DNA of 64,000 nucleotides from an uncultured Acidobacteriota bacterium (GTDB lineage Bacteria; Acidobacteriota; Terriglobia; UBA7540): the NCBI GenBank assembly GCA_964556705.1, contig CAZKXX010000005.1, forward strand, positions 197 to 64,196. The letters run 5' to 3'. This document shows, in pieces, positions 37,845 to 64,000 of the stretch (positions are counted from its first letter, which is position 1; every line of letters starts with the position of its first letter). The position numbers were made by a program, and so were the translations under genes. The notes below the pieces were generated by a model. It was not told the origin of the DNA and did not search any database. It worked only from the letters and a program-made list of their open reading frames with translations.

Positions 37845-37929
37845 GAATCTCCGCGAGGTCCGCGCCACGCGAGGAGCCGAATTCGCTTGCCTGAATTTCT
37901 CGAGACGGGTCGAAGGGCTTGGCGTCCCC

Positions 37930-38007
37930 GACGGGATTTGAACCCGTGTTACCGCCGTGAAAGGGCGGTGTCCTAGGCCGGGCTAGACGACGGGGACGAC
38001 AATTTCC
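37930..38007 (-). tRNA. tRNA-Glu (anticodon TTC), CCA encoded
   Basis: The reverse complement reads gtccccg-tc-gtct-agcccggccta-ggac-a-ccgcc-ctTTCac-ggcgg-taac-acggg-ttcaaat-cccgt-cggggac-g-cca. Confidence 0.9.
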
Positions 38008-42291: not shown

Positions 42292-42651
42292 TTGATCTGT
42301 GTCTCCCAAGTGCCGGTGCCTCGACGGAGGGGATGGCACCCCTCTTCTTCCCGCTCGACACCCCTCTGCCCCCCCGGCGCGCACGCTGGCTCCTCTGCCG
42401 CGCGGCGAAGGTTCAATGGCGCTTATCACATGACGTATCGGCGGAATTTCAAACAGTCTTGAGTTGAGGCTGGGCCTCGGGCTTTTTGACCGTCGTTCCC
42501 CGCGCCGGCGATTTCGCCGCGACGCGAGGGAGTTGGCTTCAGTTAGGAAGGCCCGGACCGCGGGTTTAGGCCGTCTTCTTGACTCGAAGATGCGTGAGGG
42601 AGGACATCCGGCGGCGGCGTGCGGGCTCAAGCTCTGGAGCGCGGGTGCGAT

Positions 42652-48208: not shown

Positions 48209-48656
48209 CGCCCGACCTCCCTCCTGCGCCCGGTGCGACGCGAGGTCCAGCGCGGTCACACGATGGCGATAGGAAAAGGTTCGCCGAAGCCTCGCCCGGA
48301 CGCTGCCGCCCCCTATTATCCTGCCAAGGACGCCGAGGGGCAACGCGGACCCTCGGGAAATGACACGCCGGCATACGACCGAGGCCCCCGAGAGTTGAGG
48401 ACCCTGTCTCAGACGGGATTTCCACGAGAGGTCAGTCAATCACGGCGCTCTCACCCCTCCGGGCGATGAGCGTTTCGAAATGCTGGAGGATTTTGTCGCG
48501 GCGCGCCATCAGCGCCTTGACCTGGTCCCTGGTGAGGTATGGCTTGGATGCGGAAAACAGACGCCGCAAGCCGCATGGGAAAGCATAATGGGGCGTTTGA
48601 ATGTTTACGGGTATAATCCGCCTTCGCCCGGCGGGGTGGGAAGGAGTGCGGAGGCG

Positions 48657-49217
48657 ATGGAATGGCTGGCGGCGGCGGTCGTGGCGGCGGCGTTAGTTTC
48701 CGGGGTCGTGATTTACAACGGCCTCGTCAAGCTGCGCGTGCAGGCGGAAAGCGCCTGGGCGGACATCGACGTGCAACTGAAGCGCCGGCACGACCTGGTG
48801 CCGAATCTGGTGGAGACGGTCAAGGGCTACGCCGCTCACGAGCGCGCCACCTTCGAGCGCGTGACGGAAGCGCGAACCAGGGCGCTAGCCGGCGGAGGAC
48901 CGGCGGCGCGCGCCGAAGCCGAAGGCGCGCTGACGGCCGCATTGAAATCGCTCTTCGCGCTGGCGGAAAACTATCCGCAGTTGCGCGCGGTCCAGAATTT
49001 CATGCAACTTCAGGAGGAAATCAGCCGCGTCGAAGACCACATTCAGAACGCGCGGCGCTATTACAACGCCGTGGTGCGCGACCTCAATACGCGCATCCAG
49101 CAGTTCCCTTCCAACCTGGTTGCCACGTTGTTTTCCTTTCAGCCGCGCGAGTTCTTCGAGGCGCGGGGCGTCGAGCGCGAATCGCCCGACGTGCATTTCC
49201 GCTCCGACCGCTCCTGA
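48657..49217 (+). CDS. LemA family protein
   Basis: It has an N-terminal TM segment, then YNGLVKLRVQAESAWADIDVQLKRRHDLVPNLVETVKGYAAHE and ENYPQLRA... Confidence 0.8.
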   Translation: MEWLAAAVVAAALVSGVVIYNGLVKLRVQAESAWADIDVQLKRRHDLVPNLVETVKGYAAHERATFERVTEARTRALAGGGPAARAEAEGALTAALKSLFALAENYPQLRAVQNFMQLQEEISRVEDHIQNARRYYNAVVRDLNTRIQQFPSNLVATLFSFQPREFFEARGVERESPDVHFRSDRS

Positions 49218-49267: not shown

Positions 49268-50944
49268 ATGCGTCGAATCGGCCTTTTCGCACTGAGTCTG
49301 GCGGGGCTCTGGAATGCCCTCTACCTGTTGTGGGCGTACACGACGCCTTCCATTCCGATGACCTGCGTCGGCGACGGGTGCGACGCGGTCCGCGCCAGCG
49401 AATACGCTTTCCTGTGGGGAGTGCCGCTGCCCGCTTTCGGCGTGGCCATGTTCCTGACGCTGGCGCTGCTGGTATTCATCGGCCCGTTGCTCAACGCCGA
49501 CCTGGAACGCCTGGCGCGCTACGCGCTGGTGGCGATTTCGGGATTCGGCTTCGCTTTTTCCCTTTATCTGACGGCCCTGGAAGCGTTCGTCATTCGCGCC
49601 TGGTGTTTCTGGTGCGTGGTCTCGGCGGTGCTGATTACGGTGATATTCGCGCTGGCGGTCCTCGACATGGTGCGCCCCCGCCCGCGCGGGGCAGCGGCGG
49701 GGCCGCCCGCCGCCCTCGCCGCGTTGCGGGGATTCGTGGTGACCGCCGTCATCGCGGTCGCCCTCGGCGTCCCGGCCTTCATCCTCCTGATGCGCCAGGC
49801 CGCGGTGGAGCCGCTCGAGGTGGCGGCGGGTGAGGGCGTGGCGGAGCGGCTGGTGCGCCCCGACAGCCACATCACCGGAAACGCGCTGGCGCCCGTCACC
49901 GTCGTCGAGTGGGCCGACTTCCAGTGTCCCGCGTGTTCGCGCGCCGAAGAGACGGCGAGAGAAATCCGGCGCCAGTACGGCGACCGCGTGCGTTTCGTCT
50001 TCCGGCAATTCCCGCTGGAACGCCTCCACCCCCACGCGCGGAGGGCGGCCGAAGCCAGCGAATGCGCCGGCGAGCAGGGGAAGTTCTGGGAGGCGGTCGA
50101 GAAATTCTTCGATCACCAGGAGGACTTGAGCGAGGCGGCGATGGTCCGCTCCGCAGGCGAGATGAGGCTGGACGTCGAGCGCTTCCGCGAGTGTCTCGCC
50201 AGCGCGCGAATGGCCGCCCGCGTGGAGCGCGACGTTCAGGACGCGCGGGCCCTCGGGCTGCGCGCCACGCCGACGTTCTTCGTCGGCCGGACCGTGGTGG
50301 AAGGGCCCCTGGCGGTGCGCGACTTCGCTCGGCTCGTGGAGGCCGAACTGGCCCGCGCCAAGGTCACGGGCCCCCGGGAAGAATCGGTCGCCGCGACTCC
50401 ACCGGGTCCGCCGAGCAATGATAAGCCGCCCTTGGAGGAAAAGAGTGGAACGAGCGCCCAAGCCCCCGAGGCGGCGGGTCAAGCCTCCGCCGGGAGCGGC
50501 GGCGGCCTGTCAGGTTTCGGAACCCTGCGGCTGGGGGGCGGAGCTTTCTCCACCTTTCAATCCTCCGCCACCACGTGCAGTGAAGAAGATCTGGCCCGGC
50601 AGCAGCCGGACATGATTCACACGGCGCAGGCGCGACAGATGTTTGAACGAGACTCTTCCGCCCTGTTTGTGGACGTCCGCCCGGCGCGCGAATTCGCCAC
50701 GCGGAGGATTCGCGGCGCCGTCAGCATCCCCGTTGAGGAAATCGAACAGCGCTGGAGCGAGTTGCCGCAGGACCGCGAAATCGTTCTGTATGAAAGCGGC
50801 AAAGGGCGCGGCGACGACCTTTGCGCCGCGGCCGTCGCGGCCGGGCGGGTGCTGCTGGCTCGCGGTTTCGCCCAGGAACGCGTAAAAGTCTTCCAGGACG
50901 GACTCGCCGCCTGGGAGCGGAGCGGCCTGCCCGTCGAGCCTTAA
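49268..50944 (+). CDS. VKOR (vitamin K epoxide reductase) + DsbA-like thioredoxin + rhodanese-like triple fusion
   Basis: The VKOR part has 4-5 TM segments with CVGDGC and CFWC. The thioredoxin part has EWADFQCPAC. A Gly/Ser/Pro linker precedes a C-terminal rhodanese-like fold (FVDVRPAREF...IRGAVSIP...VLYESGKGRG). Confidence 0.7.
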   Translation: MRRIGLFALSLAGLWNALYLLWAYTTPSIPMTCVGDGCDAVRASEYAFLWGVPLPAFGVAMFLTLALLVFIGPLLNADLERLARYALVAISGFGFAFSLYLTALEAFVIRAWCFWCVVSAVLITVIFALAVLDMVRPRPRGAAAGPPAALAALRGFVVTAVIAVALGVPAFILLMRQAAVEPLEVAAGEGVAERLVRPDSHITGNALAPVTVVEWADFQCPACSRAEETAREIRRQYGDRVRFVFRQFPLERLHPHARRAAEASECAGEQGKFWEAVEKFFDHQEDLSEAAMVRSAGEMRLDVERFRECLASARMAARVERDVQDARALGLRATPTFFVGRTVVEGPLAVRDFARLVEAELARAKVTGPREESVAATPPGPPSNDKPPLEEKSGTSAQAPEAAGQASAGSGGGLSGFGTLRLGGGAFSTFQSSATTCSEEDLARQQPDMIHTAQARQMFERDSSALFVDVRPAREFATRRIRGAVSIPVEEIEQRWSELPQDREIVLYESGKGRGDDLCAAAVAAGRVLLARGFAQERVKVFQDGLAAWERSGLPVEP

Positions 50945-51433
50945 CGCGGAAGTTAAGCCGCGTATTTTAGCGGTTTTCTAATCTGGTAAGCACCAAGGTA
51001 CTGTGGACAGCCTGCGAAAAAATGTGGCAGGTTTGCCCCGGTGTGTATATAATCCCGCGCACTTCCGCGCACCAAGGGGTCGGACGGGTTTGAGTGTGCG
51101 CTTGACCGGCGGCGGGTCGGGCATCCTTGCGGGATCGCAGGCGTCCGCTCTCGCGAAGGCGGAAGCGGTGTTTCCCGAGCAGCGGTGCCAACAAGCGGCC
51201 GGACCAGTCGGTTGGGGGACAACCATCGGAATGGCCCTGCGCTCGCCGAGGGTACGGGAATTTTTGGAGAAACTTGCGGGCTCAGATGCCGATATGTTAG
51301 GGGGCGTCGGCGGAGAGCGCCGTGTCCGGCCGTTGACCCCGCTGGCGGGGCCTAGCCGGCGGGCGGGCGCGCCGGTCGTCGTCCTCGGCGTCGAAGAGCG
51401 CGAAAGGCGCTTCCGCGAAAGATCGGGCAAACC

Positions 51434-52912
51434 ATGCCGGTACTGATCGAACACATCACCGAATTCGTGATCGCAGTCCTGATTCTGGTCGTGCTGGGGA
51501 CCGGAGCGCTGGTGGCGGCGGCCATCGCGCGACGCCAGCGGCGGGAGCGCTACTTCCAGCGGATCGATGACCTCCGCCAGCGATACAAGCCGGTGATCAC
51601 CGCCGTTCTGGCGCAAAAGCTCGAATACGTCCGCGGCGTCGAACTGTTGCGCGGCATCTCCGGGTTCGACCGCGAGTATGTCCTCGAGCAGCTTTGTCTG
51701 GAGGTTCATGCCACCGGCGAAGAGATTCCCATCCTGCGTCACCTCTGCGAGGACCTGGGCCTGGTGCGGCTGTGGCAGTCGCGGCTTTCCGGGCAGATGA
51801 ACATCGCTTCCCTGCGCGAAGCCTTCACGCGGCCCGAGGGATTTCTGGAGTGGTTCGGGGGACTGCGTTTTCTGCTGCGCGCCAAAAGCGCCGACAACCT
51901 GGGCATCATCCGCCATCGGGCGAGCTGGCCGCTGCTGGTGAAGGCGCTGGAGGATTCGCATCCGGACGTGCAGAGCGTCGCCGTACGGTCGCTCGCGGCG
52001 ATTCAGGAGCCGGAGAGCTTTCCGGCGCTGGTCCAGAGGCTGCACGACGTGGTTCTGAAACCCTCCACGCGCCTTTCGCTGCGCGCCGTCAAGACGGCGC
52101 TGGTGAGCTTCCCGCTCTCCTACGGCCCGAAGCTGATTCCCTCCCTGACCCACTCGCACCGCCGGATCCGTTTTCTGGCCACCGACGTCATCCGGGAAAT
52201 CGTCGAGCGCCTGGCGGGACAGGACGAGGAGTTCATGCTCGACCCGCGCGACTTTTCGCCGGCGCTGGCGGAAGTCTTCCTCACCCAGCTCTGCTTCGAC
52301 GAAAACCCGGACGTGCGGGCGCGCGCCGCGCCGGTGGTGGCCTATCTGGCCGACCCGCGGTCCACGCCCGTGCTGCTGACGCTGCTCGAAGACGCGCAGT
52401 GGTTCGTTCGGCTGCACACCGTTCGCGCCTTCGCCAGGCGGCGATTCATCTCGCAGGCGGCCCACCTGGCCCACCGGCTGACCGACCCGCACTGGATGGT
52501 CCGCGAGGCGGCGGCGCGCACCATGCTGGTCTACGGACAAGTCGGCAACGAGCAGCTGGCCACGCACTTCCTGAGCACCGAGGACCGCTACAGCCAGGAA
52601 CAGATCGCCGACGAAATGCAGCGCGCCGGACTCATCCCTTCGCTCCTCGCTCAATACGCCACCGAGAGCGGCGGCTCGACGGGCCGCGTTCTGGAGCGGC
52701 TGGTGAGCATGGGGAAGACCAGTTACCTAGTCAGCCTGTTGGCGCAGACTTCCGAACGCTCAGTCCGTCAGAAATTTCTCCAGAAATGGGGACGCAGCAG
52801 CGACCCGCAAATCAAGGGCTGGGTGGTGGACGTCGCTTCGAGCGAGGTTGACCCGACTCTGCGCACGCTGGCCGTCGAGTTCCTGCGGACGAGGGTCGAA
52901 CCGGGGGCCTGA
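51434..52912 (+). CDS. N-terminally TM-anchored HEAT-repeat protein
   Basis: The TM segment is FVIAVLILVVLGTGALVAAAIA. Repeated HEAT signatures follow (DSHPDVQSVAVRSLAAI, HRRIRFLATDVI, NPDVRARAAPVVAYL, QWFVRLHTVRAFA, HWMVREAAARTM). Confidence 0.7.
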   Translation: MPVLIEHITEFVIAVLILVVLGTGALVAAAIARRQRRERYFQRIDDLRQRYKPVITAVLAQKLEYVRGVELLRGISGFDREYVLEQLCLEVHATGEEIPILRHLCEDLGLVRLWQSRLSGQMNIASLREAFTRPEGFLEWFGGLRFLLRAKSADNLGIIRHRASWPLLVKALEDSHPDVQSVAVRSLAAIQEPESFPALVQRLHDVVLKPSTRLSLRAVKTALVSFPLSYGPKLIPSLTHSHRRIRFLATDVIREIVERLAGQDEEFMLDPRDFSPALAEVFLTQLCFDENPDVRARAAPVVAYLADPRSTPVLLTLLEDAQWFVRLHTVRAFARRRFISQAAHLAHRLTDPHWMVREAAARTMLVYGQVGNEQLATHFLSTEDRYSQEQIADEMQRAGLIPSLLAQYATESGGSTGRVLERLVSMGKTSYLVSLLAQTSERSVRQKFLQKWGRSSDPQIKGWVVDVASSEVDPTLRTLAVEFLRTRVEPGA

Positions 52913-52925
52913 GGAGCATCGGCTC

Positions 52926-54356
52926 ATGGAATGGGATGTCGTAAGACAGTGGTTCATCCACGGTATGAACATGTTTACCGTGGTGATCATCAGCTACTTC
53001 TTCCTCGCCAACGGCGGCTACACCATCCTGATGCTGCTGTCGCTCGGCTCGACCTGGCTTCACAACCGGCGGCTCACTTACCAGGGGCTCGATGAACTGC
53101 GCGAATCGGTTGTGACGCCGCCCGTCACGATCATCATTCCCGCCTGGAACGAAGAGGAAGTCATCGTCGAATCGGTGCGCTCCGTCCTGCGCACCGAATA
53201 CCCCAGCTTCGAAGTCGTGGTCGTGGACGACGGCTCGACGGACAAGTCGCTGGAACGTCTCATCACCGCCTTTCGCCTGGTCAGGATGGACCTCATCTAC
53301 CGCCCCCGCCTGCAGACCAAGCATGTCAAGGGCATCTATATGAACCCGCGGCTGCCGAACCTGCTGGTGGTGAGCAAGGTCAACGGCGGGAAGCCCGACG
53401 CTCTGAACGCCGGCATCAACATCTGCCGCACGCCCTACTTCTGCACGCTCGACGCCGACTGCATTCTGGAGCGGGACGCGCTGCTGCGGCTGATGCGTCC
53501 CATCGTGCGCTCGCCCGTCAATACGGTCGCCAGCGGCGGCATCGTGCGCATCCTGAACGGCTGCGAGGTCCGCGACGGCCGGGTGGTGGACGTCCGCCTG
53601 CCCCCCACTGCTATCGAGCGTTTCCAGGTCGTCGAATACCTCCGCAGCTTTCTGTTCGGCCGGACCGGCTGGGACATCCTGGGCGGGACGCTGATCGTTT
53701 CCGGCGCCTTCGCCGTGTTCCACCGCGAGACGGTGGTGGAGGCGAATGGATTTCACCACGACACGGTCACCGAGGACATGGACCTGATCGTCCAAATCCA
53801 TCGCTGGGCCGTCCACAATAACCGCAAGATCAAAATGAAGTTCACGTCGGACCCCGTCTGCTGGACCGAGTGTCCGACGTCCATGAGGATGCTCGGCCGA
53901 CAACGGCGGCGCTGGCAGCTCGGACTGTGCCAGACGTTGTGGAAGCACTCCGAGATGCTGTTCAACAGCCGTTACGGCGCCATCGGTATGGGGAGTTTTC
54001 CTTTCCACCTCTACGTCGAGGCGCTGGGAGCGCCGGTGGAGTTCCTCGGATACTTCATGGTCCCTCTGGCGCTGGCGTTTGGCATGGTTCCGCCGCAACT
54101 GTTCATTCTGTTTGTGCTCCTCAGTCTGGTTTACGGAGCGTTCCTCTCGGTGGGCGCGGTCCTGCTCGAGGAACTCACCTACCGGCGTTACCCCCGCTTC
54201 ACCGAATTGATGACCCTGTTGAAATACGCGATGCTGGAGAATATCGGATACCGGCAGGTCATTCTGTTCTACCGCGTTCAGGGCGTCTGGCATTTCCTGA
54301 CAGGCTTCCGAAAATGGGAAAAGGTCGTCCACGTGGGAGCCACGGAGCAGGCCTAG
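52926..54356 (+). CDS. processive family-2 glycosyltransferase (PgaC/IcaA/cellulose-synthase-like polysaccharide synthase)
   Basis: It has N- and C-terminal TM segments and the motifs IIIPAWNEE, VVVDDGSTD, GGKPDALNAG, LDADC, TEDMDL and QRRRWQLG (QxxRW). Confidence 0.85.
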   Translation: MEWDVVRQWFIHGMNMFTVVIISYFFLANGGYTILMLLSLGSTWLHNRRLTYQGLDELRESVVTPPVTIIIPAWNEEEVIVESVRSVLRTEYPSFEVVVVDDGSTDKSLERLITAFRLVRMDLIYRPRLQTKHVKGIYMNPRLPNLLVVSKVNGGKPDALNAGINICRTPYFCTLDADCILERDALLRLMRPIVRSPVNTVASGGIVRILNGCEVRDGRVVDVRLPPTAIERFQVVEYLRSFLFGRTGWDILGGTLIVSGAFAVFHRETVVEANGFHHDTVTEDMDLIVQIHRWAVHNNRKIKMKFTSDPVCWTECPTSMRMLGRQRRRWQLGLCQTLWKHSEMLFNSRYGAIGMGSFPFHLYVEALGAPVEFLGYFMVPLALAFGMVPPQLFILFVLLSLVYGAFLSVGAVLLEELTYRRYPRFTELMTLLKYAMLENIGYRQVILFYRVQGVWHFLTGFRKWEKVVHVGATEQA

Positions 54357-54359
54357 ACC

Positions 54360-57287
54360 ATGCGGATTCTCGGCAATCGAATTGTCATCTCGCTGATTGT
54401 CATCGCCATCGCCACGACGTTGTGGGAATTCGTGGTCAAGCCGGTGAGCGGGCCGCTTTACACGGCGGCCGTGAACGAATACCGGGCGGGCAACTACGAA
54501 CGTTCGCTCGAACTGCTCCAGCAGGCCTACCGGATCGATCCCAACAGCGCCGCCGTGCTGGCGCTGATGGGCTGGAATTACCTGAAACTGGGCCAGCCGG
54601 CGCAGGCTGAAGAGCCCTATTTCCGCCGCGCCCACATGCTGGCTCCCAACGAGCCGGATATCGCGCTGGGTTATGCTTACACCCAGGTCGAGCTGGGAAA
54701 AGTCGACGAAGCCTTCCGCATCCTGAACCAGCTTCGCGAACGCGGCGTCGCCGGCGCGGACGTGCACGTTGCCCAAGGCGCGCTTTATCGCCAGCTCGGC
54801 CGCAATCGGGAGGCCGCCCGCGAGTTTCAACTGGCCCTGGCGGCGGACACTTCGAATCCGACCGCGGAACAGAACCTGCGCGAGCTTTACGCCACCACGG
54901 GCGATTTGGAGGGGCTGCGCGGGGAGCGCCGCCCGTTCGTCCGCCCCGAGAAACTCACGCAGACCTTCCGCGCGCGCGGGGAGGCCTTCGAATACTTGAG
55001 CGGGGGCGAGTGGAAGACCGTTTATCTGGCCGGCGTCTCGCTCACGGCCGCCCTTCCCGGACGTTTCCCGGCGGAATCGCGCGTGGAAGCGGCGCTCTAT
55101 CGCCAGTGGCTCACGCAGATCAGCGGCCTCGGCGCCAACACCGTCCGCGCCTCCCTGCTGCTGCCTCCGGCGTTTTACCGCGCGCTGAGGGAGCACAACC
55201 TTTCCGGCGCAAGTCCCCTCTTCCTCGTGCAGGGCGTTCCGCTGGGTGAGCCGCCGCAGGCCGACCTGCTCGACCCCGATTTCCTGCGTGCCAGCCAGAA
55301 CGAGATTCGCTTCGCGCTGGACGCGCTGCACGGCCAGGGGGACGTTCCCTGGCGGCCCGGCCGCATCGGCGGCATCTACGACGACTCGGTGGCCGAATGG
55401 ACGGCGGGACTGGTGATCGGCGACACCTGGCTTCCCCACCTCGTCATCGCCAACAACCAGCGCCATCCGGAAACCGGCAGCTTTAACGGGACGTATTTCC
55501 AGGTCGCTTCGGGCAGCGCCACGGAAGTCTTCCTCGGCCGGCTGCTCGACTTCGCCGCCGAGTATGAGGAGAAGGCTTACAACTGGCAACGGCCGCTGGC
55601 CTTCCTGACCTGGCCGTCCCTCGACCCGATGCGCCATCCGACGGAGAGCACGATTCTGGAAGAGGTGGCCATCCGGCGGGCGCGCGGAGAACGCGTGCCG
55701 GTGCCTTCCGGCCCTTACGATGACGACGACAGCGTTTCCGTGGACCCCCTGCGGCTTCAGCCCAAGCCGCGCCTCGCGGCCGGCTACTTCGCCGCCTACA
55801 GCGTCTTCCCTTCTTATCCCGACTTCATGAACTATCAACCCAGCTACCAGGCCGTGCGCGACGCGCAAGGCAGCAATCCCTTTCTCGGCTACCTGCGCGA
55901 CTTGAAGGCCAACCATCGCGGCCTTCCGCTGCTCGTCGCCGACTACGGAATCCCCTCGAGCCACGGCATCGGCCACCTGAGCCCCGCCGGGTTCCATGAG
56001 GGCGGACACAACGAACGGCAGCAGGGTGAATTGCTGGCGCGGCTGACGCGCAGCGTTCACGAGGCGGGCGCCGCCGGCGGCATGATCTACGAATGGCTGG
56101 ACCAGTGGTTTCGCCAGTCCTGGCAATTCCGCCGTTTTGAGGTTCCCTCGGAGCGCAGTCCGCGCTGGCTGAACGCTCTGGATCCCGCCGAGCAGTTCGG
56201 TCTGGTCGCCGCAGAACCCGCCTCACGCGGCCCGCTCGCGTTGCGCGGCTTGCCGGAAGATTTTGAGGGGAAACCTCCGCTTTACTCTTCGCGCAGCAGC
56301 GGGCCGGCGCGCCCGGCGGAAGACGCCTTTGACGCGGCGCGGCACCTCAAGGCTCTCTACGTGGACGCGGATGAAGCTTTTCTGCACCTGCGGCTGGAAG
56401 TGGGACGTCTGGACAACAACGGAGACGGCCAGCCGGACTGGAACCAGGCCCGGTACGTGATCGGCCTCTCCACGCTTCCCGGACGGGCGGGCCTGCAGAC
56501 GCTGCCTTTCATCGCGCCGCTCGTGTTCCCCATGGGGATGACGTACGCCGTCCAGTTGGGCGGGCCCGAGGAGACCCGGGTTCTCGTGGCCTCCTCGTAC
56601 ACGCCCTTCCGCATCGACCCGATCGAGGGGATTCGCGGGCAGACGGGCATGCGCCTCGACTTGGGATGGCAGGCGGAGCTGGCAAGCGAAGGGGAGTTCG
56701 AGCCCCAAATGGCCGAGCCGAACCGGCGACGCTACGGGCGCGACGGGCGTTACTTCCCGCCCCTGCGTTACGAACGCGGACTGCTGCGTTTCGGAAGTCT
56801 CGACCCGCAATCGCCCAACTACAATTCGCTGGCCGGCTGGAACGTCAACCTGGCGACGAACACGGTGGACGTCCGCATCCCCTGGGGGCTCCTGGGTGTC
56901 ACCGACCCTTCGAGCTTCCAAGTGATGACCGCGGTCCGCGAAGACGGCTCGGTTGAAACCGCGGAAACACCCGGATTTCTTATCACGGCGTTCTCCTATC
57001 GGCCCGCGGACGCTGCGCGCCAACGTCCGCCGATGGAACAGCACCACGCCGTCGCGGATTCGCTTCCGGCCCTCTCCGCCACCCAGACGCGCGTCGATGC
57101 GGCCTCGCTGCGATCCTACCGCTGGACGGGCTGGGACCAGCCTCAGTACAAGCTGCGGCCGAAGGAGTCCTGGGCGGCGTTGCGCAAGGCGTTCCAGGCG
57201 CTGCCCGCCGGCCCGGAGAGCGCGGCCCCGCCAGCCACGCGAACGGCCCAGGGGCGGAGCGCCGCGGCGGGGCGCGCCGGCCGCTGA
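54360..57287 (+). CDS. TM/signal anchor + TPR + clan-GH-A-like TIM-barrel protein (paralogue 1, candidate catalytic Glu positions substituted)
   Basis: The N-terminal TPR block is followed by GANTVRASLLLPPAFYRAL, VIGDTW, FLTWPSLDP, LLVADYGIPSS and IYEWLDQWF. It is collinear with 57353..60124. Confidence 0.65.
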   Translation: MRILGNRIVISLIVIAIATTLWEFVVKPVSGPLYTAAVNEYRAGNYERSLELLQQAYRIDPNSAAVLALMGWNYLKLGQPAQAEEPYFRRAHMLAPNEPDIALGYAYTQVELGKVDEAFRILNQLRERGVAGADVHVAQGALYRQLGRNREAAREFQLALAADTSNPTAEQNLRELYATTGDLEGLRGERRPFVRPEKLTQTFRARGEAFEYLSGGEWKTVYLAGVSLTAALPGRFPAESRVEAALYRQWLTQISGLGANTVRASLLLPPAFYRALREHNLSGASPLFLVQGVPLGEPPQADLLDPDFLRASQNEIRFALDALHGQGDVPWRPGRIGGIYDDSVAEWTAGLVIGDTWLPHLVIANNQRHPETGSFNGTYFQVASGSATEVFLGRLLDFAAEYEEKAYNWQRPLAFLTWPSLDPMRHPTESTILEEVAIRRARGERVPVPSGPYDDDDSVSVDPLRLQPKPRLAAGYFAAYSVFPSYPDFMNYQPSYQAVRDAQGSNPFLGYLRDLKANHRGLPLLVADYGIPSSHGIGHLSPAGFHEGGHNERQQGELLARLTRSVHEAGAAGGMIYEWLDQWFRQSWQFRRFEVPSERSPRWLNALDPAEQFGLVAAEPASRGPLALRGLPEDFEGKPPLYSSRSSGPARPAEDAFDAARHLKALYVDADEAFLHLRLEVGRLDNNGDGQPDWNQARYVIGLSTLPGRAGLQTLPFIAPLVFPMGMTYAVQLGGPEETRVLVASSYTPFRIDPIEGIRGQTGMRLDLGWQAELASEGEFEPQMAEPNRRRYGRDGRYFPPLRYERGLLRFGSLDPQSPNYNSLAGWNVNLATNTVDVRIPWGLLGVTDPSSFQVMTAVREDGSVETAETPGFLITAFSYRPADAARQRPPMEQHHAVADSLPALSATQTRVDAASLRSYRWTGWDQPQYKLRPKESWAALRKAFQALPAGPESAAPPATRTAQGRSAAAGRAGR

Positions 57288-57352
57288 GGGGAACGGCCGA
57301 AAAGTCAGGATGGGCCCCCGCGATCTCGTCCGGGGGCAGACGAACTGGGTGA

Positions 57353-60124
57353 ATGCGGCTGTTCCGTAAACCGATCGTCGTCGTGGCGATTCTGGCCCTG
57401 ACCGGCGGCTTCGTCTCCTGGTGGCGCAACTGGCGTCCGGTCAGCGGCGCTTTCTACACCGTGGCCGTGGACCAGTACCAGGCCGGCGAGTTCGAAGGGT
57501 CGCTCGAGAACCTGAGGAAGGCTTACCGGCTGAATCCGCTCGACACGGCGATCCTTCGACAGATCGGCTGGAGCCATTTGAGGCTGGGGAACTACGACGA
57601 GGCGCACCGCTACTTTCTGCGCGCCTTGCGCTTCAACCCCCGGCTTGATGAGGCGCGCCTCGGCCTGGGCTACGCACTGCTCGAAAAGCGAGAATTCGCG
57701 CGCGCCCTGGCGTTATTCGACCGGCTGCCGGAGGAGATGCGCGAGGCTTCGGACGTGCAGGGGGCGCTGGCGCGAGTCGCGCGGCTTCAAGGCCGCAACC
57801 GCGACGCGCTCGGCATCGTGGAGAAGATGTTGCAGAAGAATTCCCAGGACGCCCTCGGCCTTCAGGAGCTCGCCTTCCTGACGGGCGCCGGAAGCCTCCA
57901 GGAGCTGGAGGCCCGTCGCAGCGGACCGGCCGAACGGCCCGACTCGCGGACGCTGCGCGCCCGGATTCGCGACGGCTTCTTTGAAGTCCCTGCGGGCGGC
58001 GGCTGGAAGAGGCTCTACATCGCCGGAGTCAACATCGGACCGGCAGTTCCCGGCCGTTTCGCCTCCGAGCCCCCCGTCGAAATGAGCGTGTACCTTGAAT
58101 GGCTGAACCTGATCCGCGAAATGGGCGCCAACACGGTCCGCCTCTACACGCTCCTTCCCCCGGCCTTTTACCGCGCGCTCGACGAGCACAACGCCGTGCA
58201 CGCGGCGACGCCCCTTTATCTCTTTCAGGAAGTCTGGCTCGAAGACCCGCCGCTCGACAACCTTCTCGACCCTTCCTTCACGGCGGGGTTCGAGAAAGAA
58301 ATCCGGCGCGTCATTGACGCCCTGCACGGCCGGGCGGACATCGCGTTCGAGCGCGGCCACGCGGCGGGCCTCTACGAGGTGGACGTCTCCCGCTACGTCC
58401 TCGCCTGGGTGATCGGGCGGGAGATCGAGCCGCATGTAGTCATCACCACGAACCTGCGGAATCCCGGCGTCAGCAACTTCCGGGGACGCTACCTCCGGAT
58501 CGAGGACGGAAACCCGACGGAAGTCTGGCTGACGCGCATGTGCGACGGCGCGGTGGCCTACGAAATCGAAGCGTACAACCAGGAGCGGCCGGTGGCGTTT
58601 GTGAACTGGCCGCCGCTCGACCCCCTTGAGCATCCCAGCGAATCGCGGCTCGTGGATGAATTGAAGATTCGCGCCGCGCGGGGCGAAAAACTGGCGCCGC
58701 TCGGTCTGGGCGTTCAGGACGATCTCGACGTCGTTTCCGTGGACGAGGAAAAAGTCACCGCCCAGCCCCACTTCGAGGCGGGTTACTTCGGTTTCCTGCA
58801 CGTGTACCCCTTCTGGCCCGACTTCATGTTCCAGGAGCCGCAGTTCCTGGAGGCGCGCGACCACCTCGGCCCCAGCGCCTACTGGGGCTACCTCCAGGCG
58901 CTCAAGCGGCACTATCGCCGCACCCCCCTGCTGATTGGCGAGTATGGGATGTCCACGAGCCTCGGCATCGCGCACTTCCATCCTCATGGCATGCATCACG
59001 GCGGAATGAGCGAGCAGCGGCAGGGCGAGATGGTCGTGCGCCTCACCAAGAACATTCGCGACGCGGGGTTTGCAGGCGGCATCCTGTTCGAGTGGATAGA
59101 CGAGTGGTGGAAACACAACTGGATTGCCGACGAGTGGGAGAAGCCGTTCCACCGCAAAGCGTTCTGGCACAACGAGCTGAACCCGGAGCAGTCATTCGGA
59201 TTGGCGAAGTTCCTGCCTCGGGCCCTCCTCCACTACACTCCCCTCGGGACGCCGGCTCCGGCCACCGAAGCGCAAACGCGCCCGCCCCGAATCCGCGGGG
59301 TCGAGTGGGCCCGGGACGCGGCGGCTTTTTATGTGGATGTCGTCCTCGACCTGCCGCGCGGCGCTGAGCCCGACTGGAGCCGCGACCGTTACCTGATTAC
59401 GCTCAACACCTGCGACGCGCCTTGCGGGTCGGGAACGTTGCCTTACGCCAACGTGCGGGTTGAGCCGGGAGCGAATTTTCTGGTCCACGTGGCCGGCCCG
59501 GACTCGACGCGCCTGCTGGTGGCGCGGAACTACAACCCTTACCGTGCGGTGACGGTCGAAGGCGTCTCGGGCGGCGTGGAGCTGACCGTGCCGCCTAACC
59601 TCGACCTGTCGTTCGACGCCGCGGGCGCGTTCGACGAGCTGGTGATCGAAACCAACCGCCGCCGCTACGCGCGCGACGGGCGCGTTTTCGAGCCCATCCG
59701 CTACAGCCGCAGCCCGCTCGGCTACGGCGTGTTCGACACCATCTCCAGCGCCTACGACTCGCGCGCCCAGTGGTATTACGACTCCGCCTCGCGCCGTCTG
59801 CGCTTCCGGCTCTCCTGGGCGCTGCTGCTGACCCTCGACCCTTCCCAGGGATTCATCTACGCGGGAACCAACGGCCGCGCGGAAACCTTGGGACGCACGT
59901 CGAACCGCATCGAATTGAGCGCGGTCGCGTACCCGGAAGGCGGAGACGCGGCACAGGTGGTCGCCGGGGAGGCTGCGGGCGGGGTGATTACCCAGGGACT
60001 GGAAGTGCCCTGGCCCCGGTGGAACGAACTGCCCCACCGGCTGAAACTGAAGCAGAGCTATCCGATCGTCGCTGAAGCGCTTGGCCGCCTGACCGGCTAC
60101 GGCGCCTCGGCAGGAGGCCCGTAA
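57353..60124 (+). CDS. TM/signal anchor + TPR + clan-GH-A-like TIM-barrel glycosidase/transglycosylase candidate (paralogue 2)
   Basis: It has GANTVRLYTLLPPAFYRAL, VIGREIEPH (acid/base-like Glu), FVNWPPLDP, LLIGEYGMSTS (nucleophile-like Glu) and LFEWIDEWW. Confidence 0.65.
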   Translation: MRLFRKPIVVVAILALTGGFVSWWRNWRPVSGAFYTVAVDQYQAGEFEGSLENLRKAYRLNPLDTAILRQIGWSHLRLGNYDEAHRYFLRALRFNPRLDEARLGLGYALLEKREFARALALFDRLPEEMREASDVQGALARVARLQGRNRDALGIVEKMLQKNSQDALGLQELAFLTGAGSLQELEARRSGPAERPDSRTLRARIRDGFFEVPAGGGWKRLYIAGVNIGPAVPGRFASEPPVEMSVYLEWLNLIREMGANTVRLYTLLPPAFYRALDEHNAVHAATPLYLFQEVWLEDPPLDNLLDPSFTAGFEKEIRRVIDALHGRADIAFERGHAAGLYEVDVSRYVLAWVIGREIEPHVVITTNLRNPGVSNFRGRYLRIEDGNPTEVWLTRMCDGAVAYEIEAYNQERPVAFVNWPPLDPLEHPSESRLVDELKIRAARGEKLAPLGLGVQDDLDVVSVDEEKVTAQPHFEAGYFGFLHVYPFWPDFMFQEPQFLEARDHLGPSAYWGYLQALKRHYRRTPLLIGEYGMSTSLGIAHFHPHGMHHGGMSEQRQGEMVVRLTKNIRDAGFAGGILFEWIDEWWKHNWIADEWEKPFHRKAFWHNELNPEQSFGLAKFLPRALLHYTPLGTPAPATEAQTRPPRIRGVEWARDAAAFYVDVVLDLPRGAEPDWSRDRYLITLNTCDAPCGSGTLPYANVRVEPGANFLVHVAGPDSTRLLVARNYNPYRAVTVEGVSGGVELTVPPNLDLSFDAAGAFDELVIETNRRRYARDGRVFEPIRYSRSPLGYGVFDTISSAYDSRAQWYYDSASRRLRFRLSWALLLTLDPSQGFIYAGTNGRAETLGRTSNRIELSAVAYPEGGDAAQVVAGEAAGGVITQGLEVPWPRWNELPHRLKLKQSYPIVAEALGRLTGYGASAGGP

Positions 60125-63100
60125 TGACCGAGCAAGTTGGATTCCCGCGCGCCTGGCCCCGCCCCGGCGGGCTGGCGCGAGTCTTCGTCCTGACCGGGCT
60201 CCTGGTCGGGATGAGCGCCCCTGTCCCGGCCGGCGCTTTCCCGCCGCAGGCGACGACACAGGTGCGTCAGGCGGCGATTGCCAAGTCCAACCGTCGTCTG
60301 GCCGTCGAGCCCATGGACTTCGGGACGCGCGTGGAACTGGCGCGGCTGCTCGCGCAGGAGCGCGACTTTGCCGCTGCGCTCGAAAATTACGAGTTTGTTC
60401 TCCGCCATCGTCCGGAAAACCTCGCGGCGCGCATCGGCCGCGCGCAGGTGCTCGGCTGGACGGGCCGCCATCGCGAAGCTCTCGCCGAGGTGGAAAAGGT
60501 CCTCGCCGCGAACCCCAGGAACTTCGAAGCGCGGATCGTCAAGGCCTACAACCTGCTCTGGCTGGGTGAACTGAGTCAGGCGAAATCCCTCTTTGAGCAG
60601 TTGGCCCGCGAGAACCCACGCCATTCCGACGCGCGCGAAGGGCTGATCGAAGTCGAAAAAGCCGAACGCGCCGCCGCCGATGCGCCGCCGCCGGCTCCCG
60701 CCCGCACACCGGCTCTGGAAGCCGCCGAGCGCGCCGAAGCGGAAGGGAATTACGCGGAGGCGGTCCGCCAGTACCGCCAGCACCTCGCCCAGTCTCCGCG
60801 CGACTCCGACGCCGAATTCCGCCTGGCGCGCGTCCTGGGCTGGAACCGCGATTACGCGGAGTCGGAAAAGGTGCTCCGCGACTACGCTCAGCGCTTTCCC
60901 TCTAACCCCGAGGCGTTCTTCCAGCTCGCCCGCGTGCTGAGCTGGCAGGAGAAATATCCCGAGGCCGTGGACTATTACCGCAAAGGCCTGGCCTTGCGTC
61001 CCGAAGCCGACGCGCAGCGCGTGGAGTTGGCGCGCGTGCTGGCCTACACGGGCGAGCACGCCCGCGCCCTCGATGAATATCGAGTCGCCCTCCAGATGCG
61101 CCCTGACAATCGCGAGGCGCAGGTGGGTGTCGTGGAAGCGCTGATCCAAACCGGGGAAATCGGCACGGCCCGGCGGGAAATAAACCGGCTGAGCCAGCAG
61201 TATCCGGGCGACCGGCAAATCGAGGCGCTCAAGCAGGACTTGGAATCGGCCACGCTGCGCCGGGCCCGCGACCAGGCCACCGGCCCCGAGGCCGAGGCCC
61301 GCCTGCGCGCGCTCGTAAACGAAAATCCCGAAAGCGTCGAGGCGCGCATGGCGCTGGCCGAAGTGCTGCTGGCGCGCAACGACTTTCCCGGCGCGCTCCA
61401 GGAGTTCCGCGCCGTCCGCCAGCTTCGTCCTGACGATGAGGCGTTGCAACTGCAACTGGCACGCGTGCTGAGCTGGAACCAGCAGTTCGCCGAGTCCGTC
61501 AAGCTCTATCAGGAGTATCTCGTCCGGAACCCGCAGGATCTGCCGGTGCGCCAGGAAATGGCCCGCGTGATGAGCTGGTGGCGCGACTACAACGCCTCCG
61601 TCGCCGAATACCGGCGCATCCTGGCCGAGAACCCCGACGACACACAGACGCGACTGGAAATGGCGCGCGTGCTCTCCTGGTCGCGCGAATACGGCCCCGC
61701 GTTGGAGGAGTTTGAGGACCTGATTCGCCGCGACCCGAAGAATTTTGACGCCTGGCTCGGCAAAGGGCGCGTCCACACTTACCGCCAGCAGTGGAAGGAC
61801 GCGCGGCGGGCACTGGATACGGCGCTCGAAATCAAGCCCGGAGACCGTGAAGCGACGACCGCACGGGCCCAGGTGGAACTCTGGTCGGGCAATCCCGACG
61901 GCGCGCAGAAGATGTTGTCCGAACTCCATGCGGCTGACCCCTCGGATACGACCGTCCTGCTCTCGATGGCCTCCGCCGAGAATTCCCTGGGCCGGCCCGA
62001 CCGCGCCCTCAATTTGCTCGAAGAAGCCGAACGTATCGAGCCGCGCAACACCGACGTCCGCGCCCTGCGCGAGGCTATCCAGCGTGGCATGCGCCCCGAA
62101 CTTCGCTTCGGCTGGAGCTACGTCCGCGACACCGAAGGGCTCAACATCTGGCGCTACCAGCTTCTGGATTTCCGCTTCAATCTCCACCCGCGGCTGCGAA
62201 ACTTCATTACCGTGGACGTGTTGCCCTCGTCGGCGCTGGCCGAAATTTTCGGCTATCGAGTGTTTCAGAACGGCGAGTCCTTTTTCTCCCCGCGCGTACC
62301 CGTGGAGCCCTTTGTTCCCGCCCCGACCGCGCTGGGGTTTGACGACTTCCCGCCGGATGTGCTGGTCTCCGGCGGTGACCGCATCGCCCAGAACGCGCTC
62401 CAGTTTCAGTTCGGCGGGACGGCGCAAATCTCCTCGGCGTTCTCGCTTACGGCGAGCGGGGGCTTGATCCAATTGCGCCACGGTGCTCGCGATTTCAGTG
62501 GATTGCCTGCCACACACGAGCGGGCCATCTGGTCCGTCTCGCCGACGTTCAAGCTTGGCCGGCATGTGCAAATCAACCTGGGCACTGCGCGGCGGTATTT
62601 CCCTTACACCCCGAAGTCGGTGGCGCAGACCATGCACGCCGACGAATACACGGGCGACCTCATCCTGAGCCCCGATTCGCGCACGCGCATCGCCTTCGGT
62701 TATTACCACCGCGCCCTTTCGCCGGAATTCCTCCTGCCCGACATCCCGTTGCCCGACGGCGGCACTTTTGCCGGCCGCGTCTTCCGGAGAAAAGGCAACG
62801 GCGGCACCCTCTCCGCCACCCGTATTCTCTGGCGCGGCGAGAAGGCGGAGTTCGAAGCGGGTTACGACGCCATGCTCTTTGGCTATACGAGCCCGGAGGG
62901 ACTGCCCTCGCCGGAGTTCTTCCTGAACACCGGCTTCTTCACGCCCAGCTTCTACCAGCGCCACGCGGGGCTGGCGCGCGTCACCTTGAAGCCTTCGCGT
63001 TACATCGTCTGGGACCTTCACGGGACGGCGGGCCCGCAGCAGATCCGGCAGCGGTCCGATTTCAGCTTCAGCTCGACGGCGGGCTCGCGGCTGGATTTCG

Positions 63101-63240
63101 TCTTTACCCCCGACTTCGTGCTGAGTGTCGGGTACGACTATTTCAACACAGCTTCCGCGCTCCAGGCGCTCATCGTGCCCGGCCGCGCGGCCGCCTATCA
63201 CAGCAACAACGTCTATGCGACGTTGCTGATTCGATTTTAG
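60124..63240 (+). CDS. TPR-rich outer-membrane export porin (PgaA/BcsC-like): signal peptide, about 15 TPR, C-terminal beta-barrel
   Basis: Its start overlaps the previous stop (TAATG). It has many TPR units (LARVLGW/LARVLSW repeats). The last ~380 aa show an alternating beta pattern ending in YATLLIRF, with an aromatic C-terminus. Confidence 0.7.
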   Translation: MTEQVGFPRAWPRPGGLARVFVLTGLLVGMSAPVPAGAFPPQATTQVRQAAIAKSNRRLAVEPMDFGTRVELARLLAQERDFAAALENYEFVLRHRPENLAARIGRAQVLGWTGRHREALAEVEKVLAANPRNFEARIVKAYNLLWLGELSQAKSLFEQLARENPRHSDAREGLIEVEKAERAAADAPPPAPARTPALEAAERAEAEGNYAEAVRQYRQHLAQSPRDSDAEFRLARVLGWNRDYAESEKVLRDYAQRFPSNPEAFFQLARVLSWQEKYPEAVDYYRKGLALRPEADAQRVELARVLAYTGEHARALDEYRVALQMRPDNREAQVGVVEALIQTGEIGTARREINRLSQQYPGDRQIEALKQDLESATLRRARDQATGPEAEARLRALVNENPESVEARMALAEVLLARNDFPGALQEFRAVRQLRPDDEALQLQLARVLSWNQQFAESVKLYQEYLVRNPQDLPVRQEMARVMSWWRDYNASVAEYRRILAENPDDTQTRLEMARVLSWSREYGPALEEFEDLIRRDPKNFDAWLGKGRVHTYRQQWKDARRALDTALEIKPGDREATTARAQVELWSGNPDGAQKMLSELHAADPSDTTVLLSMASAENSLGRPDRALNLLEEAERIEPRNTDVRALREAIQRGMRPELRFGWSYVRDTEGLNIWRYQLLDFRFNLHPRLRNFITVDVLPSSALAEIFGYRVFQNGESFFSPRVPVEPFVPAPTALGFDDFPPDVLVSGGDRIAQNALQFQFGGTAQISSAFSLTASGGLIQLRHGARDFSGLPATHERAIWSVSPTFKLGRHVQINLGTARRYFPYTPKSVAQTMHADEYTGDLILSPDSRTRIAFGYYHRALSPEFLLPDIPLPDGGTFAGRVFRRKGNGGTLSATRILWRGEKAEFEAGYDAMLFGYTSPEGLPSPEFFLNTGFFTPSFYQRHAGLARVTLKPSRYIVWDLHGTAGPQQIRQRSDFSFSSTAGSRLDFVFTPDFVLSVGYDYFNTASALQALIVPGRAAAYHSNNVYATLLIRF

Positions 63241-63411
63241 GCGGCTCGAAAGGCGCGACACCGAACGGTCGGTCGGCGAGCTGACGGCCCGGGAGGAACT
63301 GGAACTTTAGTACTATTCCCATCCGGCGGGGAAAGGGTATACTCCCTGCCCTGAAGTCACCGGTTCACAGCCTTGAGCAAAGCACGGCCATCCGCGGATG
63401 GCCAAAGGAGC

Positions 63412-64000
63412 ATGAACATGACGCGCCCGCGTCTGGTTTCGGTCCTCGCACTCGTCTGTCTGGCCCTGTTCACCGCCACCCTCGCCTCCGCTGCCAAGAA
63501 GGGCAAGGGGAGCACGACGCCGCTGACCGCCACCTGGTCGAACCCTGTCGCGGTCGGAGTCCACGACGACGGCAACCCCGTTTACGACCACGGGACTTCC
63601 GGCGTTCAGTGCTACTTCGGCGTGAACCAGAAGGACGCCAACCTCGTCACCTACAACACGCCGCGCAAACTCCGCTTCTTTTTCGATTCCAGTTCGACGG
63701 CCTGGCAGAATTCCGGCCTGGCTCAGGACTTTTTGGCGGAAGTGGATTTGTTCGGGGTCAATTACTTCGGCCCCTATCCGAGCATGGGTGTCGGCACCAC
63801 CGCTCAGGTGCAGATGGACCTGGAGTTCAAAGTCGGCAAGTTGACATACGAACTGGATTATCCTTCGCTGGCGGCGATGAGGCTTTCGGAAACTGAGTGG
63901 CTCATCACTTCAGACCCGGGTGACATCCCCGGCAATCCGGGGTTTACCGCGAGCGACTTGGCTTCGCTGAACGTCATCCGCCGTCGCAGCCAGGAGCAGT
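63412..64000 (+). CDS. secreted hypothetical protein (3' end outside window)
   Basis: This ORF is not in the supplied track because it has no stop in the window. The ATG at 63412 follows AAAGGAG and gives MNMTRPRLVSVLALVCLALFTATLASAAKK.... I translated frame 1 by hand to nt 64000 without finding a stop. Confidence 0.6.
   Translation, partial: MNMTRPRLVSVLALVCLALFTATLASAAKKGKGSTTPLTATWSNPVAVGVHDDGNPVYDHGTSGVQCYFGVNQKDANLVTYNTPRKLRFFFDSSSTAWQNSGLAQDFLAEVDLFGVNYFGPYPSMGVGTTAQVQMDLEFKVGKLTYELDYPSLAAMRLSETEWLITSDPGDIPGNPGFTASDLASLNVIRRRSQEQ

Follow-up and report, generated by a model that had tools for sequence, protein, structure and literature searches.

The question raised by five adjacent genes in an uncultured Acidobacteriota bacterium is whether they encode a variant of a known exopolysaccharide secretion system or a system of another kind. 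The genes lie on contig CAZKXX010000005.1 within a window of 64,000 nucleotides (the window being the whole stretch of DNA that was analyzed), and encode a HEAT-repeat protein, a family 2 glycosyltransferase (GT2), two related proteins that we designated X1 and X2, and a tetratricopeptide repeat (TPR) protein that ends in a beta-barrel. To our knowledge, no more than a handful of polysaccharide machines of the synthase-dependent kind are understood, and these dominate thinking on biofilm matrices. The analysis described here indicated that the five genes probably form one operon for the synthase-dependent secretion of an exopolysaccharide, and that this system probably represents a distinct family that has yet to be characterized.

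Organization of the five-gene locus

The five open reading frames (ORFs) at 51434-63240 all lie on the plus strand (Table 1), and their junctions were read directly. A gap of 13 nt that contains GGAG separates the HEAT stop codon from the GT2 start codon (ATG at 52926), 3 nt lie between the GT2 stop and the X1 ATG, 65 nt lie between the X1 stop and the X2 ATG, and the X2 stop and gene 5 start overlap by 1 nt (TAATG). Because of this spacing there is no room for a hidden gene the size of PgaD or IcaD. The GT2 start is slightly ambiguous, as a TTG at 52848 would give a longer frame, and in public gene calls the GT2 of the identical locus begins 15 codons downstream; this ambiguity leaves the conclusions unchanged. 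The same block of five genes was also found on independent metagenome contigs, with an identical X2 and with an X1 at 91% identity. Promoter and terminator scans detected no promoter- or terminator-like signal above shuffled background within the block.

The original prediction, made from the letters of the sequence without database searches, had described a packed set of co-directional genes encoding a transmembrane-anchored HEAT-repeat protein, a processive GT2 with DxD, TED and QRRRW motifs, two paralogues of approximately 950 aa that each carry an anchor, a TPR block of their own and a clan GH-A-like TIM barrel, and a 1038-aa TPR plus beta-barrel porin ending in ...LLIRF. The layout was confirmed by the ORFs and their junctions, and each of the protein assignments held up in the profile searches and structure predictions described below.

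The synthase and its HEAT-repeat neighbor

Gene 2 matched Pfam Glycos_transf_2 (E 5e-23) and at the sequence level has the features of a processive glycosyltransferase, namely the D, DxD, TED and Q(R/Q)xRW motifs of GT2 (Table 1) and flanking transmembrane helices, here hydrophobic segments at both ends of the protein (residues 10-38 and 367-417). The best NCBIfam match was PgaC_IcaA (TIGR03937), at 110.5 bits against a cut-off of 422.3, with cellulose synthase, NodC and others scoring lower. Matches to PDB sequences, those of BcsA (E 9.5e-5) and hyaluronan synthase, were weak or marginal. These features identify the gene 2 product as a predicted processive family 2 glycosyltransferase that is PgaC-like in size and topology.

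Gene 1 matched Pfam HEAT_2 (E 4.9e-26). Its product has one hydrophobic segment within residues 1-34, with the transmembrane helix at about residues 8-31, followed by RRQRRER. Based on the positive-inside rule, the solenoid is read as cytoplasmic, and we propose that the HEAT protein is a single-pass inner-membrane protein. HEAT homologues with the same N-terminal transmembrane helix are encoded directly 5' of GT2 in many phyla. The helix was common to all stand-alone HEAT partners compared, and the window protein is approximately 110-150 aa longer than the HEAT partners of other phyla.

The TPR-porin

Gene 5 encodes a signal-peptide-like N-terminus followed by approximately 600 aa of TPR, with nine TPR_19 stretches (TPR_19 E 7e-62). 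The C-terminal region of approximately 380 aa had no Pfam match and no PDB sequence match. AlphaFold2 modeling of this region with 40 sequences yielded a beta-barrel with a pLDDT of 91. In Foldseek searches the barrel was matched to BcsC with a TM-score of about 0.6 (6tzk, E 4e-11, TM-score 0.61; 9b8a), to PelB in PelBC (9h80, TM-scores 0.59/0.62) and to PgaA (4y25, TMt 0.83), versus TM-scores of 0.34-0.42 for all other porins. BcsC, PelB and PgaA, the nearest structures to the modeled barrel, are precisely the three synthase-dependent exporters for which structures have been solved. The Pfam, AlphaFold2 and Foldseek results together describe a predicted outer-membrane beta-barrel coupled to a periplasmic TPR region.

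X1 and X2 are predicted clan GH-A proteins

X1 and X2 are 36.6% identical, and each consists of an N-terminal transmembrane anchor, approximately 150 aa of TPR and a further part of approximately 750 aa. The latter had no Pfam, NCBIfam or PDB sequence match. When 30 diverse X domains from many phyla were compared with Pfam, no family was found except for one stray GH113 match (E 0.007), and searches of PDB sequences with the X domain, both as a single sequence and as a 30-sequence profile, returned nothing. The closest relatives of X1 all came from Acidobacteriota/Terriglobia and bore no name other than "tetratricopeptide repeat protein", and the X proteins of cultured strains are labeled "hypothetical protein" in RefSeq.

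Modeling of X1 with AlphaFold2 from 44 homologues was confident (pLDDT 87.7, pTM 0.84) and yielded a transmembrane helix and TPR helices, a (beta/alpha)8 barrel and, at the C-terminus, a beta-sandwich. Foldseek matched this model in PDB to a GH157 endo-beta-1,3-glucanase (9g4n, E 6e-12) and to many GH2 beta-glucuronidases, at a Foldseek probability of 1.00 for both groups. Identity to the clan GH-A structures was 9-13%, with TM-scores of 0.25-0.47. The 50 best-ranked of 451 significant matches were viewed, and no PgaB or GH153 structure was among them. The predicted fold of X is that of clan GH-A.

The acid/base and the nucleophile of retaining clan GH-A enzymes canonically lie after strands 4 and 7, within motifs of the same styles as those found in X. 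When the conserved motifs of the X family were mapped on the strands of the X1 model, GREWEP fell just past strand 4 of the barrel and xAE[YF]GVP where strand 7 ends. The strand-7 glutamate is kept in 82 of 84 genome-derived X sequences and the two strand-4 positions in 78 and 75 of them, the second rising to 81 if aspartate is counted; D422, H426, E429, D581 and W583 are invariant among the 84. X2 keeps the family-wide motifs (Table 1). In X1 both glutamate positions are lost, and the alignment columns of its Terriglobia clade hold T/S/P, L/P and a variable D/E/A/G at the three glutamate positions.

In the predicted X proteins, as in GH157 (9g4n) and GH2 hydrolases, a beta-sandwich comes after the (beta/alpha)8 barrel, and in X2 and most of the X family glutamates lie where strands 4 and 7 end, within NEP- and xE[YF]G-like motifs. 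The X proteins differ in the X family's own invariant residues (LDPxxHPTE and WxDEW) and in the lack of the glutamates in X1. Because the family-wide glutamates are kept at both presumed catalytic positions, X2 is probably an active glycanase or transglycosylase, putatively of the retaining endo type, that acts on the nascent polymer. X1 is probably a degenerate, non-catalytic, polymer-binding paralogue, because both glutamate positions are lost in X1 and its orthologues. The original prediction of two periplasmic modifying enzymes consequently stands for X2, as a predicted enzyme, and probably does not hold for X1, which has lost the putative catalytic residues.

Conservation of the module and its candidate regulatory genes

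A scan of one genome per species identified at least 594 X-encoding stretches. These were found in Acidobacteriota, Gemmatimonadota, Nitrospirota, Eisenbacteria, Geobacteraceae, other deltaproteobacterial (Desulfobacterota-type) metagenome-assembled genomes (MAGs) and Bacteroidota, and also in cultured Paenibacillus, Bacillus/Gottfriedia, Peribacillus, Clostridium and Geothrix. A HMMER search of 1.84 billion representatives with the X2 domain returned 1359 clusters at 50% identity, 526 of them at E <= 1e-30.

A total of 82 loci were fetched, and their ORFs were classified with the window proteins and a few extra queries. X was present in 81 of these loci, a homologous porin in 60, GT2 in 48 and HEAT in 43. 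At least 7 kb was available on each side of X in 39 loci; GT2 was present in 27 of these, and 24 of the 27 also had HEAT. The order HEAT-GT2-X-TPR-porin recurs in the neighborhoods of diverse homologues in other Acidobacteriota, and HEAT-GT2-X was found in Nitrospirota, Geobacteraceae, Eisenbacteria and others. In Firmicutes (relatives of Bacillus, Paenibacillus and Clostridium), HEAT-GT2-X is kept without the porin, as expected. Outside Terriglobia, the TPR proteins encoded after X are short (about 500-650 aa) with ends resembling the beta-signal of outer-membrane proteins, and the last 300 aa of these proteins share homology with the window barrel (hhalign 99.35%, E 6e-21, 303 columns). In some Gemmatimonadota, X and the TPR-porin are encoded by single ORFs of approximately 1500 aa (Table 1), and proteins of 1360-1516 aa also turned up in an exhaustive search of the X family. 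Because of these fusions, a physical complex of X and the porin is argued. By sequence and neighborhood, HEAT-GT2 plus X-porin is a widespread, unannotated and conserved module rather than a one-off.

These neighborhoods bear on two claims of the original prediction. The co-conservation of the parts was upheld, with four protein families conserved together across phyla. The non-canonical parts list was accurate for the window and is refined here, in that the parts recur widely and relatives sometimes add a CE4 gene. A CE4 polysaccharide deacetylase gene lies between X and the porin in 9 of the 82 loci (Table 1), in Nitrospirota, Geobacteraceae and related MAGs; it is found neither in the window nor in most other phyla. 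Several members of the GT2 family gave weak chitin-synthase matches. The occurrence of CE4 in nine loci, together with the leaning of GT2 to the PgaC (N-acetylglucosamine (GlcNAc)-polymerizing PgaC/IcaA) and chitin-synthase models, leads us to guess that the polymer might be a beta-linked glycan, possibly one that contains GlcNAc or another N-acetylhexosamine. Some acidobacterial variants (L084; L002, L085 and L086) carry extra enzymes between duplicated X and porin genes, either a sulfatase-superfamily enzyme of 847 aa or an enzyme of the GT-C type (PMT_2/Glyco_transf_22; GT22), which suggests lineage-specific decoration of the polymer in the periplasm.

A receiver-domain (REC) gene lies directly 5' of HEAT in many loci of several phyla, alone or fused to GGDEF. 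The arrangement (GGDEF/REC)-HEAT-GT2-X was found in Peribacillus and Paenibacillus, and also in Bacillus FJAT-25509, where X is on the opposite strand. The Peribacillus protein, a REC-REC-GGDEF, keeps its GGEEF intact and has an RxxD site, and the GGDEF-REC proteins of Paenibacillus, Bacillus FJAT-25509 and Clostridium grantii are without a GG[DE]EF motif. That REC or GGDEF-REC genes precede HEAT, and that all stand-alone HEAT proteins share the transmembrane helix, suggests that HEAT may be an adaptor between a phospho-relay or cyclic di-GMP (c-di-GMP) input and the synthase. In C. grantii, a GGDEF-REC gene is followed by a GT2 gene with a HEAT-like N-terminal region, and then by X. The N-terminal extension of this GT2 is approximately 540 aa long with a Pfam HEAT_2 match, and the apparent HEAT::GT2 fusion is no more than suggestive as Rosetta-stone evidence.

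Two long GT2 genes, for proteins of 987 and 955 aa, lie in tandem in the C. grantii locus (Table 1), each after a GGDEF-REC gene, and a single X follows. One of the GGDEF-REC proteins also has an ODP metallo-beta-lactamase-like sensor domain.

Comparison with the pga, bcs, pel and alg systems

The curated models of known systems scored three- to seventeen-fold under their cut-offs for PgaC, PgaA, BcsA/CelA and BcsC. In addition to the PgaC result given above, the PgaA equivalog (TIGR03939) matched gene 5 at 117.8 bits, over six TPR stretches only, against a cut-off of 366.65, the BcsC equivalog (NF008520) matched gene 5 at 76 bits from TPR repeats against a cut-off of 858, and the BcsA/CelA model (TIGR03030) matched GT2 at 41.9 bits against a cut-off of 699. 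Pfam and NCBIfam searches of the five proteins detected no CE4, GH153, PgaD, BcsB, PilZ, Alg44/AlgK or PelD/E/F/G, no combination of Alg8 with Alg44, no AlgE, and no GGDEF, GAF or MshEN domain. No Polysacc_deac_1 match was found in the operon, and no homologue of the CE4 protein of a related locus (L037) was found anywhere in the 64-kb window. Since the curated models score so far under their cut-offs, the locus is, as judged by sequence, orthologous to none of pga, bcs, pel and alg. The original prediction had pointed to synthase-dependent logic outside these four systems and had noted that CE4, PgaD, BcsB, a fused PilZ, AlgK/Alg44 and PelD-like parts are absent from the five proteins, and both observations proved correct.

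The module shares with Pga/Ica a small PgaC-like GT2 that is flanked by transmembrane helices, a porin of the 16-stranded type joined to TPR, a glycanase-like (beta/alpha)8 domain predicted to lie in the periplasm, an inner-membrane protein proposed as the small or accessory partner that the synthase requires and, in some related loci, a CE4 deacetylase. In contrast to Pga, a transmembrane-anchored HEAT solenoid, encoded upstream as a 492-aa protein, takes the place of PgaD, the window is without CE4, and the glycanase-like domain is of clan GH-A (GH157/GH2-like) rather than GH153, is duplicated and is membrane-anchored with its own TPR block. Since CE4 is sometimes present in relatives, as is a gene for REC or for a degenerate GGDEF-REC, the module is nearer to Pga in logic than the window alone suggests. 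Like the Bcs system (BcsA-BcsB-BcsZ-BcsC), the module has a processive GT2 whose gene is followed immediately by that of a large extracytoplasmic protein, a candidate for a dedicated endoglycanase in X2, and a TPR-porin of the BcsC type, for which BcsC (6tzk) was the best match in Foldseek. It differs in that the GT2 of the window has no PilZ domain and is approximately 400 aa shorter than BcsA, in that the BcsB fold is missing, and in that the Bcs glycanase is a GH8 whereas the glycanase-like protein here is of clan GH-A. With Pel (PelA-G) the module has in common the PelB-like TPR plus barrel exporter, a periplasmic hydrolase that associates with it (both hydrolase and association being predictions here) and, in Firmicute relatives, a degenerate GGDEF protein beside the synthase that is comparable to PelD. 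Unlike the membrane GT2 found here, the Pel polymerase PelF is a soluble GT4; PelA is a GH166 plus CE4 protein, and PelD, PelE and PelG homologues are lacking in the window locus.

Correspondence of GT2 and X to YdaM and YdaN of Bacillus subtilis (ydaJKLMN) was considered as well, and was set aside as unsupported. We take the ydaJKLMN operon to be Pss-like (GH8 YdaJ, GGDEF-type YdaK).

Proposed mechanism and alternative explanations

From the domain content, folds, conservation and linkage described above we infer, by topology, the roles of the proteins, and with them enzyme activity, polymer identity and regulation. The inner-membrane GT2 would polymerize a beta-linked glycan from a nucleotide sugar and thread the chain across the membrane, because its family is that of inverting, processive GT2 enzymes with QRRRW and flanking transmembrane helices. 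The HEAT protein, anchored beside GT2, would control the synthase from the cytoplasmic side as an obligate partner or signal adaptor, a role proposed because of its strict adjacency to GT2 across phyla and because of the REC or degenerate GGDEF-REC genes that precede HEAT elsewhere. X1 and X2, tethered to the inner membrane and equipped with TPR arms, would handle the chain in the periplasm, where X2 may process or clear it as a glycanase or transglycosylase and X1 may serve as a binding or escort subunit. The chain would then exit via the TPR-porin, with a TPR solenoid that would span the periplasm and probably dock X1 and X2.

The full reading joins three statements, and we put the three together forward tentatively, at somewhat less than even chances. 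HEAT-GT2-X-porin would be a separate, phylum-spanning synthase-dependent family beside those for alginate, cellulose, poly-N-acetylglucosamine and Pel, with an undescribed polymer; its synthase would be switched on via the HEAT adaptor, fed in most lineages by a receiver-domain or degenerate-GGDEF protein and not by PilZ, PgaD, PelD or Alg44; and X would found a new clan GH-A family in which the Terriglobia paralogue is catalytically dead and acts as a periplasmic polymer escort. Several observations weigh against the mechanism proposed above. No description of a HEAT-GT2-X-porin module was found in the open-access literature searched. No REC homologue or c-di-GMP receptor gene lies in or adjoining the window operon. 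Twelve Gemmatimonadales loci have X and the porin with no GT2 or HEAT within 10 kb. The N-terminal extension of the C. grantii GT2 was not significantly similar to stand-alone HEAT in BLASTP and reached only 78% in hhalign (E 1.7e-5). The catalytic positions of X were set from the DSSP strands of a predicted model and not from a superposition. Some Terriglobia loci (L001, L004 and L005) have only the X1 type within the 10-kb flank on each side; in these either X1 keeps some activity, hydrolysis is dispensable, the non-catalytic role is the essential one, or an active copy lies elsewhere in the genome.

A very divergent Pga system would account for part of the same evidence, with GT2 as PgaC, gene 5 as PgaA, the roles of PgaB split or replaced, and HEAT in the place of PgaD. 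PgaC_IcaA is the best curated match of the synthase, which is alike in size and transmembrane layout, the porin superposes on PgaA, and CE4 right after X in related loci repeats the deacetylase, hydrolase and porin logic of Pga. We nevertheless regard this explanation as unlikely, as the PgaC and PgaA models score far too low (the latter on TPR repeats only), the window has neither CE4 nor PgaD, only nine of the 82 loci have CE4, X resembles GH157/GH2 with no PgaB or GH153 among the Foldseek matches viewed, and the barrel matches BcsC and PelB equally well. In Bcs terms, X could instead be an essential periplasmic or extracellular translocation subunit similar to BcsB, in which the catalytic-looking residues only bind and no processing takes place. 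The position of X directly after GT2, as that of bcsB after bcsA, is consistent with such a role, as are its membrane anchor, the large part of approximately 750 aa outside the membrane, its retention in Gram-positives without a porin, and the loci in which the X1 clade provides the only X within 10 kb though its glutamates are lost. A strand-7 glutamate that is kept almost throughout the family and a strand-4 GREWE almost as conserved are, by contrast, typical of active retaining clan GH-A enzymes; the modeled fold matches enzymes and not BcsB, and in Gemmatimonadota X is tied more tightly to the porin than to GT2, fusions included. A purely BcsB-like function of X is consequently improbable.

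It is also conceivable that the cluster is not one system and that a GT2/HEAT pair for an envelope glycan merely lies beside unrelated TPR proteins, in keeping with the separability of GT2/HEAT from X/porin in the twelve Gemmatimonadales loci. This seems highly improbable, as the genes are tightly spaced or overlapping, the same order is found in at least six phyla, and the porin and X families co-vary with the GT2 and HEAT families.

With the five genes read as a system in its own right, the module would add another family to the synthase-dependent exopolysaccharide systems, one that has a new synthase partner and probably a new glycoside hydrolase family. If this is true, the HEAT solenoid would be a new kind of synthase partner, X would likely be a new family of glycoside hydrolases, and X1 and X2 would represent a natural pair of enzyme and pseudo-enzyme inside one export system. 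Dedicated matrix glycanases have repeatedly been useful as biofilm-dispersing enzymes. Soil and sediment phyla whose matrix polymers are essentially unknown (Acidobacteriota, Gemmatimonadota and Nitrospirota) commonly carry the module, and its carriers also include culturable Bacillus-type, Paenibacillus, Clostridium and Geothrix strains, in which the proposed roles are directly testable. A published operon survey (PMC7112194) makes no mention of HEAT or of these phyla.

Flanking DNA and other genes of the window

Coordinates of the locus, of its sequence features and of the neighboring genes are collected in Table 1. The intergenic region upstream of gene 1 is presumed to contain the operon promoter. 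The promoter scan returned three promoter-like sites against 1.4 expected from shuffled sequence, which is not significant. An Rfam search of the whole window identified three tRNAs only, and no c-di-GMP or other riboswitch was found upstream of the operon.

Table 1 Features of the window and of related loci (L numbers; positions within each related locus)
Feature	Position	Strand	Remarks
Gene 1, HEAT partner	51434-52912	+	492 aa
Gene 2, GT2 synthase	52926-54356	+	476 aa, counted from ATG
GT2 motif DDGSTD	53226-53243	+	residues 101-106
GT2 motif DAD	53451-53459	+	residues 176-178
GT2 motif TED	53769-53777	+	residues 282-284
GT2 motif QRRRW	53901-53915	+	residues 326-330
Gene 3, X1	54360-57287	+	975 aa; signal-anchor transmembrane segment before TPR
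X1 TPR	54447-54890	+	
X1 barrel	~55008-56219	+	
X1 altered motif GDTWLP	55419-55436	+	glutamate position lost
X1 altered motif ADYG	55938-55949	+	glutamate position lost
X1 beta-sandwich	~56337-57164	+	
Gene 4, X2	57353-60124	+	923 aa
X2 motif GREIEP	58415-58432	+	end of strand 4; family-wide motif kept
X2 motif GEYG	58937-58948	+	end of strand 7; family-wide motif kept
Gene 5, TPR + beta-barrel exporter	60124-63240	+	1038 aa; C-terminus ...LLIRF
Gene 5 TPR solenoid	~60241-62070	+	Pfam
Gene 5 C-terminal beta-barrel	~62098-63237	+	AlphaFold2
Gene 5 conserved GFFTPSFYQ	62932-62958	+	
Presumed operon promoter region	50945-51433	+	490-bp intergenic, upstream; single weak sigma-70-like match at 51024-51053
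LemA protein	48480-49217	+	5' of operon
VKOR-thioredoxin/DsbA-rhodanese fusion	49268-50944	+	5' of operon
Signal-peptide gene	63300-64000	+	runs off window
tRNA	751-822	-	Rfam
tRNA	8504-8575	+	Rfam
tRNA	37923-37997	-	Rfam
PilZ protein	31569-32405	-	Pfam-confirmed
PilZ protein	35977-36267	-	Pfam-confirmed
PilZ protein	42652-43491	-	Pfam-confirmed
ORF related to PilZ paralogues	29724-30392	+	no PilZ match
Hybrid sensor kinase	38980-42630	-	1216 aa
CE4 gene, L037	12416-13186		also in L018, L029, L030, L044, L045, L048, L068, L074
X::TPR-porin, L022	9893-14320		Gemmatimonadota
X::TPR-porin, L035	2924-7438		Gemmatimonadota
X::TPR-porin, L056	1644-6182		Gemmatimonadota
X::TPR-porin, L077	9746-14425		Gemmatimonadota
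Long GT2 genes, L073	1049-4012, 6084-8951		Clostridium grantii, tandem

Directly 5' of the operon are genes for a LemA protein and for a fused VKOR-thioredoxin/DsbA-rhodanese protein. The VKOR fusion is also the upstream neighbor in a distant Terriglobia relative (L001) and on the identical metagenome contigs (L088 and L089), a synteny without an obvious tie to polysaccharide genes. A gene with a clear signal peptide (MNMTRPRLVSVLALVCLALFTATLASA...) starts approximately 60 nt past the porin gene and runs off the window.

Three PilZ proteins are encoded elsewhere in the window. Two are paralogues of approximately 279 aa that share an N-terminal domain, and the third is a 96-aa stand-alone PilZ. 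Four stand-alone PilZ proteins had been counted originally and named as candidate c-di-GMP inputs to the operon; three of these were confirmed by Pfam, and the fourth ORF shares only the N-terminal domain of the PilZ paralogues and had no PilZ match. No support was found for the proposed input, as phmmer searches with a window PilZ protein detected no PilZ gene in 83 related loci (L001-L083), and a link between PilZ and the operon is pure speculation. Three PilZ proteins in the window nonetheless represent an unusual local density of c-di-GMP receptor candidates. One of them adjoins the gene for a hybrid sensor kinase composed of dCache, three PAS, HisKA, HATPase and a C-terminal REC domain, and this kinase and the adjoining PilZ protein (42652-43491) may form a signaling pair.

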